Positions 35,835 to 42,399 of a DNA stretch of 64,000 bases are shown in pieces. The stretch is from an uncultured delta proteobacterium. GTDB taxonomy: Bacteria > Desulfobacterota > Binatia > Binatales > Binataceae. The DNA is taken from the NCBI GenBank assembly GCA_963765675.1, contig CAVXXK010000001.1, positions 608,001 to 672,000 on the forward strand. The letters are read 5' to 3'. Position numbers and translations under genes: made by a program. Within the stretch, counting starts at the first letter, position 1. The number at the start of each line of letters is the position of its first letter. Under the pieces are notes generated by a model. The model searched no databases. It worked only from the letters and a program-made list of their open reading frames with translations, and had not been told where the DNA came from.

Positions 35835-36575
35835 TCAGGCGGGCGCGGTCAGCGCGACATGCGCCTCGGGATAGAAGGCCTGCGCGAATGATGGCCGCGC
35901 CTGCATCCGCGCGTACCAATCCTGAAAGTGAGGCAATCCCTCCCACACGCTTTCGATGCCAAGATCGGACATCCTGACGATCGTCGGCAATACGCAAAGA
36001 TCGGCAAGTGAGATCTGTTCACCGGCAAGCCATCGCGATTCGGCGCCTGCCGCGGCGTCGATACGTTCGACGGTCTGACGCAGCCGCTCGAGCGATTCGT
36101 CCACCTGCTCCTTTGAAAACCCGGTGGTGCCAAATCGTCGGTAGTGGCCCTTGCGCAGCGGGGTGGCCGCGATATACCGCTCGCGCGCCCGCTCGCTCAT
36201 CGCGCTCCATCCCGCGAGGAACAGTCCGTTGAACGATGGAATCCGAATCGAGGCGGTCGGAACCTCCTCGATATAACGCAGCCACGCGCGTACTTTGGCG
36301 CGCCCGTACGGCGTCTCGGGCATCAAGCGCGTGCCTTGATGAGGCGCGATCTCCTCGAGATATTCGCAGATCACAGAGGAGTCGATCACAGAACGCCCGT
36401 CGTCGAGCAGCGTCGGAACCACGCCGTTAGGATTGAGCTTCAGGTAGGCCGGCGTGAGATGCGCGCCGGCGGCGAAATCGATCGGATGACCGGTCCACGC
36501 AAGCCCTTTCTCGGCGAGACACAGGCGGACCTTCTGGCTGCACGTCGAGATATGGGCGTGATAAAGCTCGAGCAT
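35835..36575 (-). CDS. Glutathione S-transferase family protein (S-x-C-S N-terminal motif)
   Basis: LYHAHISTCSQKVRL, LNPNGVVPTL, SSVICEYLEE, SLADL. Confidence 0.9.
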   Translation of the reverse strand: MLELYHAHISTCSQKVRLCLAEKGLAWTGHPIDFAAGAHLTPAYLKLNPNGVVPTLLDDGRSVIDSSVICEYLEEIAPHQGTRLMPETPYGRAKVRAWLRYIEEVPTASIRIPSFNGLFLAGWSAMSERARERYIAATPLRKGHYRRFGTTGFSKEQVDESLERLRQTVERIDAAAGAESRWLAGEQISLADLCVLPTIVRMSDLGIESVWEGLPHFQDWYARMQARPSFAQAFYPEAHVALTAPA

Positions 36576-36586
36576 CGCGATCGGAC

Positions 36587-37768
36587 CTAAGCGGCGCGCG
36601 CCTCCGGGAATATCCGCAGAAAATTCTCCGAATAGAACCGGTTGCGAATCTCTTCCGAGCGATCGCCCAGCGCGCCCTCGAAGCGGGAAATAGGATTACG
36701 GCCACCTTCCGTATGCGGATAGTCACTCGAGAATAGATACAGATCCGGATTCGATTCGTCGATCAATGCACCAACCGGTTCAAAAACAAACGGAGTAAAC
36801 GCCATCTGCTGAGTGAGCTGCTCGGACGGAGCGCGGGTGAACTTGGAGAGGTTCGCGTCGGTTTTTCGCCAAATCTGAACTACCCAATCCAGGCGGCTCA
36901 GCAGCGACGGCACCCATCCGGCCCCAAGCTCGACGCACGCACCGCGCAGCTTTGGAAAGCGCTCGAAGACGCCGTCGATCAGCATCATCGAGAGGAATGT
37001 CTCCGGCCCCTGATGCAGCACCGCGACGTCCTTGGTGCGCAGATTCTCACCGCCGCCCATCCAGTCTTTGACCGGCGCTCTGCCGTTGTTCATCCACGCC
37101 TTGTCGAGCTGCAAGGGCGATCCGCCGACGTGCAGGACAAACGGGATGCCCGCGTCGGCGAGCGTCGCCCAAAAGCGATCGAACGCGATATGGCCCGGTG
37201 ATTTGTCGCCGCACACGCGATGCGGAACCCAAACCGCCTTCAGTCCGTTCTTGATCGCGAAATCAAGTTCCTCGAGTGCGAGTTCCGGTTCGTCGAGCGG
37301 CGCGGCAGCGACCCCCAGGAGGCGCCGATCGCGTGAGCAGAACTCCGCCATGTGCCGGTTATGCGCACGAGCTGCGGCGTAGCGGATCCGCGGCGATATT
37401 TTTGAACTCGGCGAAAACGGCATCGCGAGGCTGTGAGTCGCAAACACGAGCTGGCTTTTGAAGCCCAGCATATCGAGCGCGACCGAGCGCTCGGGACTGT
37501 CGAACGCGCCGAGCGCCTGAATCTCTTTCGATCGCTCAATCAGATGATCGCCAAGCGACAGAAGTTCGGCGACATGCTCCTGGCTGTGGCGGCCGCCGCG
37601 CGACATGATTTCGGCGACTTCCTCGTCGGTGACGAGCGAGGCGCTGTAACTGACCGCGGGAATCTGCGCGCGCAGTTCGGGATCGGCATAGCGCTGCAGG
37701 AAATCCGGCAGCTCCATGATATGGCTGTCGGCGTCGTAGAATGGCCGATTGTCGGGTGCGTAAGCCAT
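36587..37768 (-). CDS. Amidohydrolase_2 family metallohydrolase
   Basis: YDADSHIME, VLHVG, GVFERFPKL, ELGAGWVP, FSSDYPHTEG. Confidence 0.88.
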   Translation of the reverse strand: MAYAPDNRPFYDADSHIMELPDFLQRYADPELRAQIPAVSYSASLVTDEEVAEIMSRGGRHSQEHVAELLSLGDHLIERSKEIQALGAFDSPERSVALDMLGFKSQLVFATHSLAMPFSPSSKISPRIRYAAARAHNRHMAEFCSRDRRLLGVAAAPLDEPELALEELDFAIKNGLKAVWVPHRVCGDKSPGHIAFDRFWATLADAGIPFVLHVGGSPLQLDKAWMNNGRAPVKDWMGGGENLRTKDVAVLHQGPETFLSMMLIDGVFERFPKLRGACVELGAGWVPSLLSRLDWVVQIWRKTDANLSKFTRAPSEQLTQQMAFTPFVFEPVGALIDESNPDLYLFSSDYPHTEGGRNPISRFEGALGDRSEEIRNRFYSENFLRIFPEARAA

Positions 37769-37825: not shown

Positions 37826-38200
37826 TCAAATCCAACTGCCGAGCACGATCCCCGCGATGACGGCGACTCCACCGGTGACCACGCTGCCGATTAGATAGGT
37901 TGCGCCGAGCAGCATTTCACCGGCCTGAAACAGCCGCGCCGATTCATATTCGAAAGTCGAAAAGGTCGTGTAGCCGCCGACGAATCCCACCGCAAAAAAT
38001 AGCCGCCAATAGGGACTCAGCGAGACTCGCTCTTCGGCGAACGCGAGGAACAGCCCGATTATGAAGCTTCCCGTCACGTTGATCACAAAGGTTCCGTACG
38101 GAAAGGTGGCGCCGAAGCGCGAGGCAAACCATCCACCCACCAAATAGCGCGCGACCGATCCCATCGCTCCGCCGATCGCAACCGATATGGCTCCCAGCAC
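37826..38200 (-). CDS. crcB: Fluoride efflux channel Fluc/CrcB
   Basis: GGAMGSVARY, FPYGTFVINVTGSF, GFVGGYTTFSTF signature. Confidence 0.97.
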   Translation of the reverse strand: MLGAISVAIGGAMGSVARYLVGGWFASRFGATFPYGTFVINVTGSFIIGLFLAFAEERVSLSPYWRLFFAVGFVGGYTTFSTFEYESARLFQAGEMLLGATYLIGSVVTGGVAVIAGIVLGSWI

Positions 38201-38224: not shown

Positions 38225-39514
38225 TCAAGCCAGAAGCGCCCGCAACATCTCCGTCCGCCCGACGATCCCGACCAACTTGCCCTCGCCGTCGACCACGGGC
38301 ATGCGTTTGACTCTTTTCTCCGCGGAGAGCACCAGCGCGCTCACCACCGGCATCTTGTCTCTTACTGTTATAACTTCCGGCGTCATTAGGTCCCGGGCCG
38401 AGCGCGCGCGCAGCTTACGGATATCTTTGCTCGCGTCGGTGCTAATCTTTCCGATCGGAATCCTGGACACGAGAATTTCGAGCAGCCCGGGCGAGCCCTC
38501 GCGGCTGAGCTTCGCGATCAAATCCGAATCGGCGATGATGCCGGCAACATGCTGATCGTCGTCCACTACCACCACGCGCTTGTGCGAGGACGCGACCAGG
38601 AGATCGAAGATTTGCTCGATCGTCGCCGACTCGTGAAGGGTCGGCACCTCGCGGGACATTACGTCGCACACCGCCGCGGAGGGATCAGCGGCAGGAGCGT
38701 CGGGACGCCACTCCGGCAGATGAACCGCGGCGATTGTATTCAGGATGTCGAGGCGGCCGAGAATCCCGACCAGCGTTCCATTCTTGTCGACGACCGGCAG
38801 GCGTTTGAGTCGTTTGTCCACCATCACTCGCGCCGCGGCCCCGAGCACGGTGTCAGGAGTCGTCGTCACCACCGGCGCGGTCATTATCTCGGACACTTTA
38901 CGATGCGGATCTTCGAGCGACTCATGCAGCTTGCGCACGAACTCCGGGTCGGCCATTGCCTTGCGAAGACTGATGGTCAGTTTCATTCCGCCGCGCGTCA
39001 GGAGGTCGTTGTCGCTGACCATGCCGACAACTTTGCGCTGCGCGTCGATTACCGGAACCGCGGTAAAATTCTTGCCGAGCAACAGCTCGACAACCTGCGT
39101 GATCGGACTATCGGGATTCACGGTCGCGACTTCGCTGCGCATAACCTCGGAGACATTTACGTCGGGCAAGCCTTCCCTGAACGGAGCGCCCGACTGGAGC
39201 ACGTCAACTTCTTGAGCCGTGATAAGCGCGTTGGGCGCCATCTCGCGCACCGCGGCGATCACTCGGTCGATCCGCGCCGGGCGATCGATCACAGTAATCG
39301 TGATTGGCATGTCCATCGAGAGCCGCAGGATTGCCGAAGTATGGATCAGCGACGACGCGCCAAAGCCGGCAATCCCGCGAGTCGCGGTGGCTCCGCTGCA
39401 TCCTTCGCGCCTTAGCAACTCGATGAGCGCCATGTACAGCGCTTTATGTTCGTACTGATCGGTTTCGCCGAAGTAGATGTTCAGTTGCTTGCCCTTTCCG
39501 GTAAACATCATCAC
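38225..39514 (-). CDS. DUF190 (PII-like) domain fused to four CBS domains
   Basis: N-terminal IYFGETDQY...GATATRGIAGFG...IHTSAILRLSMDMPI (DUF190), then VSEVM.../VSEIM.../VCDVM.../ARDLM... CBS repeats. Confidence 0.9.
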   Translation of the reverse strand: MMMFTGKGKQLNIYFGETDQYEHKALYMALIELLRREGCSGATATRGIAGFGASSLIHTSAILRLSMDMPITITVIDRPARIDRVIAAVREMAPNALITAQEVDVLQSGAPFREGLPDVNVSEVMRSEVATVNPDSPITQVVELLLGKNFTAVPVIDAQRKVVGMVSDNDLLTRGGMKLTISLRKAMADPEFVRKLHESLEDPHRKVSEIMTAPVVTTTPDTVLGAAARVMVDKRLKRLPVVDKNGTLVGILGRLDILNTIAAVHLPEWRPDAPAADPSAAVCDVMSREVPTLHESATIEQIFDLLVASSHKRVVVVDDDQHVAGIIADSDLIAKLSREGSPGLLEILVSRIPIGKISTDASKDIRKLRARSARDLMTPEVITVRDKMPVVSALVLSAEKRVKRMPVVDGEGKLVGIVGRTEMLRALLA

Positions 39515-39639
39515 GCACCTCCCGCGACTGGATCACCGCACGCACCGACACGACGCATGCGGCTCTCAGAGCTTAGCAGATGCAAGATGCTGGCAACTGA
39601 ACGCATGGCTCTGTCCTTGCGGCAGAGCCCTTTCAAACG

Positions 39640-39673
39640 AAAAGCCCCTACCTGTGTTTAACACCTGTAGGGG
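39640..39673 (-). terminator. Intrinsic terminator (expression platform of riboswitch 1)
   Basis: CCCCUAC-AG-GUGU-UAA-ACAC-AG-GUAGGGG followed by CUUUUCGUUU; the 5' arm overlaps the aptamer's GACCCCU strand. Confidence 0.85.
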
Positions 39674-39721
39674 TCATCAGCTCACTCAGACGGGAGCGGT
39701 TATCGGTGAACCCCATCACCG
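39667..39721 (-). ncRNA. Fluoride riboswitch (crcB motif) upstream of DUF190-CBS and crcB
   Basis: GGUGA-UGGGGU-UCACC-GAUAACC-GCUC...GAGC-UGAU-GACCCCU-AC: P1, P2 and the GGGGU/ACCCC pseudoknot all present. Confidence 0.95.
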
Positions 39722-39732
39722 TTCGCGACTCC

Positions 39733-39784: not shown

Positions 39785-41458
39785 TCAATCAGTTACCGCG
39801 CCCAGACTGCTCGACGACACCTGGGCCGCGTATTTGGACAACACGCCGCGCGTATAACGTGGCGCGGGCGCCTTCCAGGCCGAGCGCCGGCGCGCGATTT
39901 CGTTTTCCGGGACATTTAATTGCAGCACCAGGCGATCGCCGTCGATCGTGATTGAATCGCCTTCATGCACCAGCGCGATCAGTCCGCCGATCTGCGCTTC
40001 CGGCGCGACATGTCCGACCACCAGACCGTAGGTCCCGCCGGAGAATCGTCCATCCGTAATCAGACCCACCGAACCGCCAAGTCCCGCGCCGATCAGCGCC
40101 GACGTCGGCGACAGCATCTCGCGCATCCCGGGTCCGCCTCGCGGACCCTCGTACCTGATCACCAACACGTCGCCGGCTTTGATCTTTCCCTCGAGGATCG
40201 CCTTAAGTGAATCCTCTTCGCACTCGAACACTCGCGCGGGCCCGGTTATCTGGCGGCTCTTTATACCCGTGATTTTCGCGACCGCGCCTTCGCTGGCAAG
40301 GTTGCCGCGCAGGATCGCCAGATGCCCCTGCGCGTACATCGGATGCTCCCACGGATGGATCACGTCCTGATCCGCACGCGGAGCCGCGGGTACTTCGGCC
40401 AGGTTCTCCGCGATAGTCTTGCCCGTAATCGTCATCTCTTCGCCGTGAAGCAGGCCATGCGCGAGCAGCATCTTCATTACTTGCGGAATTCCGCCGGCTC
40501 GATGCAGATCGGTCGCGACGTATTTTCCGGAAGGCTTCAAGTCGCACAGCACCGGCACTCGACGGCGGATGGTTTCGAAGTCGTCGATCTTAAGCGGCAC
40601 TCGCGCCGCGTGCGCCATCGCCAGCAGATGCAGCACCGCGTTGGTCGAGCCTCCGACCGCCATCACCACCGCGATCGCGTTCTCGAATGCGTTGCGCGTC
40701 ATGATCTGGCGCGGAAGAAGCTGGCGGCGAATCGCTTCGACCAGCACCTCGCCCGAGCGCGCCGCGCTGTCGGCCTTCTCCGGATCGACCGCCGCCATGG
40801 TCGAGGAATACGGCAGGCTCATCCCCATCGCTTCGATCGCCGAGGACATCGTGTTGGCGGTGTACATCCCGCCGCAGGATCCTGCTCCCGGACAGGCGCG
40901 GCGTTCCACCTCGAGCAAGTCGTGCTCGCTTATCCGGTGAGCGCTGAATTCTCCCACCGCCTCGAATGAGCTTACGATAGTCAGATCTTTGCCGTTGTAA
41001 TGTCCGGGCTTGATCGTTCCGCCATAAACGAATATCGCCGGGATATTCATCCGCGCGATCGCGATCATCGCGCCCGGCATGTTCTTGTCGCATCCGCCGA
41101 TCGTGACCACGCCGTCCATCGCCTGCGCGCCGCATGCGGTCTCGATCGAATCTGCAATCACCTCGCGCGAGACCAGAGAATATTTCATCCCTTCCGTGCC
41201 CATCGCGATCCCGTCGCTGACGGTGATCGTGCCGAACACCTGCGGCATCGCGCCCGCGCCCTTGATCGCCGCTTCCGCGCGCTCGGCGAGGACGTTCAGG
41301 CTCATGTTGCAAGGCGTGATCGTGCTGTAGGAATTGGCGACGCCGACGATCGGCTTTTCGAAGTCGCGATCGGTAAACCCGACCGCGCGCAACATCGCCC
41401 GGTTAGGCGAACGCTGAACGCCTTGCGTGATCTCTTTGCTTTTCAGATTTTCTTGCAT
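39785..41458 (-). CDS. ilvD: Dihydroxy-acid dehydratase
   Basis: [63 protein letters not shown]. Confidence 0.97.
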
Positions 41459-41503
41459 GGCAATTTTCGCGATTGAAATTCGCTCGCGCTCCCAGAAAAA
41501 CTT

Positions 41504-41533
41504 AAAACCCCTACGGCTGTCCGCCCGCAGGGG
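41504..41533 (-). terminator. Intrinsic terminator (expression platform of riboswitch 2)
   Basis: CCCCUGCGG-gcggacag-CCGUAGGGG followed by UUUUAAGUUUUU, upstream of the ilvD ATG. Confidence 0.85.
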
Positions 41534-41593
41534 TCATCAGCCCTCTGAACTGCAACGTAATAGAGAGCGGTTATCCGGTGAACCCCATCACCG
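41527..41593 (-). ncRNA. Fluoride riboswitch (crcB motif) upstream of ilvD
   Basis: GGUGA-UGGGGU-UCACC-GGAUAACC-GCUCUCU...AGAGGGC-UGAU-GACCCCU-GC. Confidence 0.93.
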
Positions 41594-41610
41594 CTAGCGC
41601 GTTCATCATT

Positions 41611-42399
41611 TCAGCATCGCCCCGCGCGGGTCAAGGTAATTGGCGCCGCGCCGGCTTCAGTCTGGACACCCTCTCCCTCCGGGAGAGGGCGACGCGGCGC
41701 GATGCTTGCGATTCTTTTTCGCAAGCATCGTGACCGCGTGGGTGAGGGTGCTGCTCCGCGTCTGGCCTGCTCGGCCGTCACGTCCAACATGACGCTTCGC
41801 GTCAGCCGACGGGCCGTCGGCATCCACTGGCAGAAAGAGAGCACCTTGGCGAGATGATAGAGAATGCAGATGCCGTCGTCGGCCAGAACGTTGTGCGTCA
41901 CGTCGTCGATCAGACGCTCGGCGCTACCCGGATGCTCGCAGTGATAAAGAACATGCGAGGCAAAGACGATTCGAAACCCCCGGGCGCGCGCCGGCGAGTT
42001 GCGCGATCCCAGCAGCTCGAGCCGATGCCCCGCGAAAGAGTCGCCCGCACGCGCCGAAAAATCCGCGAGCTTGACTGTCCCTGCCGCATTCGCCGCCGCG
42101 AGCGTCGCGAGCGCCTCGCCGCTGCGTTCATCTGCATATTCAGCACTATAGTCAGTCGCGCGAACCTTGAAGCCCGACGCGAACTTCACACCGGTAAGAT
42201 ATTTGACCAGCGTATCGCAAGGGCCGCATCCGATATCGGCGATCATGACGGGATCATTTCCCGTCAGCACGACACCCGCGGCTGCGAGATTATTCAGAAA
42301 GGCCGCATTGATCCGCGCAGTCTTTTCCTTTTCGTCGGTCGCCGCCTTGAACGACGGGTAGATCTCTTCGTAGCGGTAACTATCGATCGTAATGCTCAT
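41611..42399 (-). pseudogene. Class I SAM-dependent methyltransferase, probably C-terminally truncated
   Basis: IADIGCGP motif I, ATDYS, FASHVLYH, LADDG; after about 41840 the ORF runs into low-information/REP sequence. Confidence 0.6.
41669..41749. repeat. Expanded CCCTCTCCC/GGGAGAGGG REP with an inserted hairpin
   Basis: CCCTCTCCCTCCGGGAGAGGGCG-[...CGATGCTTGCGA ttcttt TCGCAAGCATCG...]-TGGGTGAGGG. Confidence 0.7.

Follow-up and report, generated by a model that had tools for sequence, protein, structure and literature searches.

What does a sensor of fluoride have to do with the synthesis of branched-chain amino acids? The question arises in a 64,000-nucleotide stretch of DNA (hereafter the window; positions 608,001 to 672,000 of contig CAVXXK010000001.1, assembly GCA_963765675.1) from an uncultured delta proteobacterium assigned to the Binataceae, in which a fluoride riboswitch aptamer, RS1, stands directly upstream of ilvD, the gene for dihydroxy-acid dehydratase. 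Positions are those of the window, and the locus described here reads along the minus strand. The genome that contains it (4.5 Mb, 16 contigs, 95.6% complete) is called G000; other G numbers denote genomes of relatives and L numbers denote loci. Our best overall explanation, which we hold with moderate confidence, is that RS1 is a fluoride ON switch with a lineage of ilvD as its cargo, an arrangement that would compensate for an impaired enzyme. What is new here would be ilvD as the cargo of a known riboswitch class, together with the history of that cargo; the design of the switch itself appears ordinary.

We scanned the whole window with Rfam 15 cmscan and observed exactly two matches to RNA families above the gathering score, both on the minus strand and both to the fluoride riboswitch family RF01734 (cut-off 34 bits). 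These two, RS1 and RS2, are also the only RF01734 matches in the whole G000 genome. RS1 (41521..41601) matches positions 1-64 of the 64-position model from 41601 to 41521 at 41.3 bits, with an E value of 5e-08 for the 64-kb window and 8.3e-10 per genome, and it scores 67.1 bits against R1, a model of our own. An earlier note on this DNA, made from the letters alone, had described a complete aptamer with an overlapping terminator at 41527-41593. That interval falls inside the RS1 match, and the covariance-model search that the note proposed is significant and spans the full model. The note had also placed the aptamer directly upstream of an intact ilvD, which is borne out by a 557-aa open reading frame; its distance of about 70 nt needs correction, as 62 nt separate the 3′ end of RS1 from the ilvD ATG.

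All core nucleotides of RS1 are present and its pseudoknot strands are complementary (GAUGGGGUUC with GAUGACCCCU). The pairing joins GGGG in the P1 loop to CCCC in the 3′ tail, and other riboswitches of the genus covary to GGAG/CUCC (alignment A2). Intrinsic terminator 1 (41496..41535), the putative expression platform, was located by a hairpin scan and is present in the minimum free energy (MFE) fold; its hairpin (41535-41506), built of 11 pairs that include 7 G-C, runs into a T-rich tail, TTAAGTTTTT. The 5′ arm includes the CCCC pseudoknot strand, so that the hairpin begins within the 3′ strand of the aptamer and the two structures are mutually exclusive. Just 5′ of RS1, a consensus scan lists a promoter-like site, P1 (41605..41634, TTGACC-18-(TG)AATGAT), which the earlier reader had missed; between terminator 1 and the ilvD ATG the same scan lists no promoter. 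RS1 thus resembles the fluoride riboswitch of Bacillus cereus crcB (RF01734) in its P1 stem, P3, pseudoknot and a terminator that shares the 3′ pseudoknot strand, and differs from the class in its first gene, ilvD, in a 7-bp extended P3 and in a 13-nt loop insertion typical of the window's subclade. By these features RS1 is predicted to be an ordinary transcriptional ON fluoride riboswitch. In the mechanism that we propose, transcription would begin at promoter P1, a few bases upstream of the aptamer. When fluoride is absent, the 3′ CCCC strand would be taken up by the terminator hairpin, so that most transcripts would end before ilvD. When it is present, the GGGG:CCCC pseudoknot would hold the 3′ strand, block the terminator and allow RNA polymerase to enter ilvD.

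Next in the transcript, ilvD (39785..41458) encodes a dihydroxy-acid dehydratase of 557 aa that our tree places in a riboswitch-linked clade. The open reading frame scores 791.5 bits against TIGR00110 (cut-off 618.15) and 862.4 bits against NF002068 (cut-off 644), and residues 1-557 are collinear with 6nte_A, a dihydroxy-acid dehydratase chain of known structure (935 bits); like 5ze4 and 6ovt, that chain belongs to the cyanobacterial/plant type. Dihydroxy-acid dehydratase is a Mg2+ and Fe-S enzyme, and a 12-residue stretch and GSCGGM, which we take to be the cluster and Mg2+ sites, are identical in 6nte and the window's IlvD. Three residues past Cys50 of the PCN motif, Ser53 is present in 11 of 11 members of the linked clade, whereas Gly occupies this position in 6nte and in 25 of the 27 type-A sequences outside the clade. 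A protein search and PF00920 (one match) both identify the window's ilvD as the sole IlvD/Edd-family gene of G000. The genome also has ilvC (431 bits) and ilvB; the latter lies outside the window (G000:C6:154740-156429), where the TIGR00118 acetolactate synthase large subunit is split over two overlapping frames (294.6 and 514.9 bits), to all appearances by a frameshift or an assembly error. Because ilvD is the sole gene of its family and ilvC and ilvB are present, we predict that it is the working dehydratase of the branched-chain pathway, with no spare copy.

Is the arrangement maintained in related genomes? Among 61 relatives surveyed, 23 have RF01734 matches and 55 have an ilvD match. Four sister species (G001, G003, G005 and G009) have IlvD proteins that are 95-97% identical and an ilvD locus in common with the window. 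The order in G001 and G005 is RS1-ilvD-RS2-DUF190CBS-crcB. In G009 it is RS1-ilvD-DUF190CBS-crcB: the RS2 aptamer and its terminator are deleted and the distal part of the leader is retained (L116 5148-5268), which would leave the local crcB dependent on RS1 alone. Because of this dependence, and because all model positions of RS1 are matched and its pseudoknot strands agree, we consider it very probable that fluoride opens RS1. Between the -35 element and the ATG, the leaders of G000, G001, G005 and G009 differ by 6-13%, compared to 20-29% at four-fold sites of the adjacent ilvD and 37-70% in the sequence upstream of -35. The leader changes less than the four-fold sites and therefore appears to be under purifying selection. 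Promoter P1 is invariant or nearly so in five sister genomes (alignment A1), and its TTGAC core is kept in other genera (A3).

To the wider family the same question was put by a BLAST survey with the RS1 leader over 165 family genomes, which returned a match in 16. In 10 of these, ilvD follows the match immediately (G000, G001, G003, G005, G009, G198, G226, G241, G272 and G285), and G198, G226, G241, G272 and G285 represent four genera other than the window's. The match is followed by DUF190-CBS in three more (G222, G239 and G243), and in G118, G126 and G189 no query protein matched alongside. G010, G027 and G118 are flagged as unpublished and are counted in tallies only. The P1 stem, P3, the GGGG/CCCC pseudoknot strands and the terminator hairpin are kept in 10 ilvD leaders, and the extended P3 stem GCUCUCU/AGAGGGC recurs in these leaders across genera, together with the P1 stem and the terminator. 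RF01734 scores before ilvD are 51.4 bits in G272, 52.4 in G241, 48.5 in G198 and 49.8 in G285, and a metagenome contig, L163, gives 52.7 bits before an ilvD whose product is 85% identical. What lies 3′ of ilvD varies: G241, G198 and L163 have two MutS_V genes there, G272 has none, and the window's subclade has the crcB operon. The part that stays constant is thus the riboswitch plus ilvD. A one-off association of the window was rejected, as at least 10 of the 165 family genomes, as well as L163, carry the leader before ilvD.

We then asked where this ilvD stands among the others of the family. In a maximum-likelihood tree of IlvD (47 rows, LG+G4 with a quick search, the broken G285 copy excluded), ten linked IlvD and that of G007 form one clade, with 99 in the Shimodaira-Hasegawa-like approximate likelihood-ratio test (SH-aLRT), and this clade branches from within the family's ordinary IlvD. 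By this topology, the riboswitch-linked ilvD is a distinct lineage of the family (probably Binataceae) that travels with the riboswitch across five genera. It is the only ilvD in seven genomes (G000, G001, G003, G005, G009, G007 and G226), and G198, G241 and G272 each have two PF00920 copies; G285 has one intact copy and a broken linked one. In the tree, the second copies from G272 and G285 cluster with G035, which belongs to their own genus, and are therefore regarded as vertical housekeeping genes rather than bin contamination. As a separate observation, the family has two ilvD types that are ~51% identical and patchily distributed even within one genus (G004, G010, G014, G028 and others; G198:C3), which suggests gene replacement.

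These copy numbers bear on a further idea of the earlier note, that fluoride inhibition might be met by induction of IlvD or by a resistant paralogue. In the relatives this part stood up: the linked gene forms a clade of its own and is itself an extra intact copy beside a housekeeping ilvD in G198, G241 and G272, and a broken one in G285. In G000 it did not, and a resistant or induced extra paralogue was rejected there: the second housekeeping ilvD that the note proposed to look for was not found by protein search or PF00920, the latter counting one gene in G000 and one in each of the four sister assemblies. The linked ilvD of G198, G241 and G272, with an ordinary copy elsewhere, is like the extra enolase and pyrophosphatase copies described in the consulted part of PMC11139923, and G285 is like them too apart from its broken linked copy; G000 differs in that the ordinary ilvD is gone and the linked gene is the sole copy, as it also is in G001, G003, G005 and G009. 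In several genera, then, the linked ilvD would be an extra, fluoride-induced copy beside a housekeeping gene. In the window's subclade the housekeeping ilvD would have been lost, leaving the linked copy as the only one. In such sole-copy genomes, basal read-through through a presumably leaky terminator would feed branched-chain synthesis, and fluoride would raise it.

A number of observations weigh against the reading of a fluoride switch kept for its ilvD. An ON switch before the only ilvD would look costly unless termination is leaky, as we assume. In G003 the promoter and hairpin are kept and the aptamer is mutated at ~ten positions, with an RF01734 score of 12.3 bits; G007 has no riboswitch anywhere in its genome and an unrelated region 5′ of ilvD, its leader having been replaced; G226 scores 33.5 bits, just under the cut-off; and the linked ilvD of G285 is broken by one TAA and a frame change (L265 5393-7061), with an intact ilvD on another contig. 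Clade-diagnostic residues in the linked IlvD number none at strict settings and six at loose ones, with Ser53 as the best. The RS1-side leader of the subclade (41459-41495) has no Shine-Dalgarno match before the ATG (..AATCGCGAAAATTGCC ATG), where other genera have GAGGA (A3). We found no report of fluoride inhibition of dihydroxy-acid dehydratase in the literature. The association is also rare beyond the family. A regular expression and model R1 detected no riboswitch within 4 kb of ilvD in any of 80 loci of other lineages (cyanobacteria, Betaproteobacteria, Acidobacteriota, one Candidatus Binataceae metagenome-assembled genome and others), where R1, built from the window's family with the P1 stem as its only structure, could miss distant riboswitches. 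A riboswitch stands by ilvD in 1 of 80 metagenome loci (L163) and in 0 of 17 further loci of relatives. In a class-wide sample of 151 genomes, RF01734 occurs in 38 and PF00920 in 145, and the two are adjacent only in G000 and G005, a count in which ilvD coordinates are not listed for G071, G072, G088 and G122. A widespread association was rejected within the sample of other-lineage, metagenome and relatives' loci.

The decay in G003, the loss in G007 and the weakening of the switch in G226 agree with selection in favour of constitutive expression after ilvD had become essential, on the strength of a few, related genomes. Carried further, this line of thought would have RS1 gate little in G000 as well: sole-copy status would have favoured read-through, and the element would now be mainly a constitutive leader. 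The scores of the sole-copy genomes lend themselves to this view, with 40.7-42.7 bits in G000, G001, G005 and G009, 33.5 in G226, 12.3 in G003 and none in G007 versus 48.5-52.7 bits in extra-copy contexts, and the T-tract of terminator 1 is interrupted (TTTTAAGTTTTT in G000, TTTGCGTTTTT in the sisters). However, the core nucleotides of RS1 are complete and its lower score is due to the loop insertion in the variable P3, while four species have kept the aptamer, the terminator and the promoter, and the local crcB of G009 would have no other switch. We therefore regard a mostly constitutive leader in G000 as quite improbable.

Losses of this kind could also mean that mobile fluoride-resistance islands carry the riboswitch-ilvD unit as a passenger, with ilvD caught by chance, as a neutral or mildly useful spare whose control by fluoride is unrelated to the sensitivity of the enzyme. 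In G241, TrwC relaxase and TrwB/TraG coupling-protein genes lie ~1.5 kb upstream of riboswitch-ilvD-mutS-mutS (L263 3-3755), which hints at possible transport of the unit by a conjugative element. The spread of the clade over five genera is out of step with genus labels, loss, decay or breakage affects the unit in the four genomes just described (G003, G007, G226 and G285), and its rarity beyond the family points the same way. Chance capture accounts less well for a riboswitch that always stands directly 5′ of ilvD (≤65 nt) despite varied downstream neighbours, for a leader that evolves 2-3 times slower than synonymous sites, and for a linked ilvD that survived intact until it had taken over from the housekeeping copy in at least seven genomes. 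On balance, a mere passenger seems to us a somewhat unlikely explanation, and we continue with a fluoride switch that has ilvD as its cargo.

How, then, does RS1 relate to the second riboswitch of the window? RS2 (39661..39729; RF01734 55.7 bits, E 9.6e-13) lies between ilvD and an operon of DUF190-CBS and crcB genes, just outside the coordinates of the earlier reader, who missed it. It is followed by terminator 2 (39635..39673), a CCCCUAC...GUAGGGG stem with an inner GUG/CAC helix and then CUUUUCGUUU, seen in the MFE and centroid folds; the loop and bulge put it outside the rules of the hairpin scan, which hence does not list it, and its coordinates were read from the sequence. Because RS2 and terminator 2 intervene between ilvD and crcB, transcripts from P1 are expected to face two fluoride checkpoints in series: a polymerase that reads through RS1 would next meet RS2, ahead of the exporter genes. 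TTGACT-17-TTTATT upstream of RS2, read by eye and not listed by the scan, may be a second promoter. Over 138-160 nt, the RS2 leader shares 79-87% identity with the leaders of DUF190-CBS/crcB in sister loci L114, L115 and L120, and because of this homology within the genus we consider RS2 to be the ancestral riboswitch of the crcB operon, of a kind with usual crcB control in the RF01734 class. The 5′ halves of RS1 and RS2 are near-identical (29-35 nt at 91-97%), and RS1 could be a recent copy of RS2. However, as the extended P3 and the leader of RS1 are common to other genera, RS1 appears to be older than the junction with crcB.

The first gene after RS2 encodes a DUF190 (COG1993) domain and four CBS domains (38225..39514; PF02641, four PF00571), and its counterparts also stand behind riboswitches in L113-L121. 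The fluoride channel gene crcB follows (37826..38200; 124 aa; PF02537 101.7 bits; TIGR00494 99.5 bits versus a cut-off of 80.45), and then come an Amidohydrolase_2 gene (36587..37768) and a GST-like gene (35835..36575), both assigned by Pfam. The order of the latter two after crcB is conserved in G005 (L113), G001 (L119), G009 (L116) and G003 (L121), and they are possibly part of the crcB transcript. On the other side, between an alpha/beta hydrolase gene and P1, 41611-43142 holds two open reading frames (262 and 231 aa) without a Pfam match. Conservation of the 262-aa frame in G001, G005 and G009 is limited to its first 186 aa, and the segment is absent from G003. A GC-rich palindromic repeat (..GCCAGTGG.TGCCGACGGCCCGTCGG..) lies upstream of the ilvD leader in G000 (~41790-41850) and G003 (L121 7307-7465); it yielded spurious plant-miRNA matches, far under threshold.

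Why should fluoride control an ilvD at all? In the window's family, ilvD is one of several enzyme genes in this position. Large fluoride islands (L113-L122, L262 and L265, in G005, G008, G009, G014, G272 and G285) contain up to 11 RF01734 matches per genome (G008), and the island genes linked to riboswitches include those for a Hyf/Mrp-like membrane complex, a dynamin-like GTPase with MutS_V pairs, pyrophosphatase, enolase and metallophosphoesterase; YkoP-metK (L118 4215-6561) and purC-eno-dynamin (L122 5318-9570) are linked as well. To our knowledge, metK and purC are not known partners of fluoride riboswitches. Enolase is present in two copies in G005, G009, G272 and G285 and in one in G000, and the island enolases stand directly behind a riboswitch only in part (in L118 and L122, not in L114 and L262). 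Enolase, pyrophosphatase, metK, purC and the NTPases are Mg2+-dependent enzymes, and the inhibition of enolase and pyrophosphatase by fluoride is textbook knowledge. By analogy with their extra copies, dihydroxy-acid dehydratase would most likely be impaired by fluoride and topped up. Drawing on this analogy and on the Mg2+ dependence of the other linked enzymes, we propose that impairment of the enzyme by fluoride is the reason for the unit, as a larger supply of the enzyme, or a more tolerant form, would then help; we put this reason forward as not quite an even call. A bolder version is that dihydroxy-acid dehydratase is a direct target, hit at its Mg2+ site or at an exposed Fe-S cluster, and that a dedicated paralogue arose in the family, induced through the riboswitch and possibly more tolerant (with Ser53 near the Cys50 ligand), which in the window's lineage displaced the housekeeping gene and now tunes branched-chain synthesis by a sensor of a toxic ion. 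This version is speculative, and we would sooner expect it to fail than to hold.

The benefit could also be adaptive but indirect, if IlvD is not hit and extra enzyme instead defends branched-chain flux against acidification of the cytoplasm by HF, a shortage of phosphoenolpyruvate and pyruvate through enolase inhibition, or a disturbed supply of iron and Fe-S clusters. It is ilvD only that stands behind the riboswitch, not ilvB, ilvC or ilvE, and the Mg2+ dependence of the other linked enzymes, a matter of general knowledge, is a better fit to direct inhibition. What speaks for an indirect benefit is found in the literature. According to the consulted part of PMC10100675, E. coli under NaF has ilvE, ilvM, ilvD and ilvB among its 50 most induced genes, with suf and Fur-regulon genes also up, which is circumstantial and counts for the main reading as well; the consulted part of PMC11139923 describes shifts in amino-acid pools and notes chorismate mutase near exporters. 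We consider an indirect benefit unlikely, and retain impairment of the enzyme as the preferred reason.

Like the T-box and leader-peptide attenuators of ilv operons, RS1 is a terminator-bearing RNA leader before a branched-chain gene (PMC12452182, in part). Those attenuators sense tRNA charging, and with it the pathway's own products, whereas RS1 is a predicted sensor of a toxic ion foreign to the pathway. In the consulted part of PMC12452182, ilvD appears only under T-box control. The partners of the fluoride riboswitch named in that of PMC11139923 are exporters, Na+/H+ antiporters, pyrophosphatase, HAD, enolase, formate hydrogen lyase and chorismate mutase, and a search of this text for the terms 'dehydratase', 'ilv' and 'branched' gave no result; PMC7266159 describes a fluoride 'super-regulon' that, in the portion available, does not contain ilvD. 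We found no literature linking ilvD or dihydroxy-acid dehydratase to a fluoride riboswitch, where the rare partners in the supplement of Baker et al. 2012 could include ilvD. The earlier note had likewise not counted ilvD among the partners of this class, in agreement with these sources as far as they extend.

Genes behind fluoride riboswitches have guided our understanding of what fluoride damages and how cells cope, from exporters to enolase and pyrophosphatase. The conserved riboswitch-ilvD unit adds to this list of linked genes a dehydratase of amino-acid synthesis that depends on Fe-S and Mg2+, and the linked and housekeeping IlvD of one genome (G241 or G272) offer a concrete pair of enzymes to compare. 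The practical reach is modest: the unit is a lead for fluoride toxicity and for fluoride-tolerant hosts in organofluorine work. For the family itself, the locus would represent a rare trajectory, in which a stress-induced spare replaces an essential gene and the sensor that came with it then persists or erodes.

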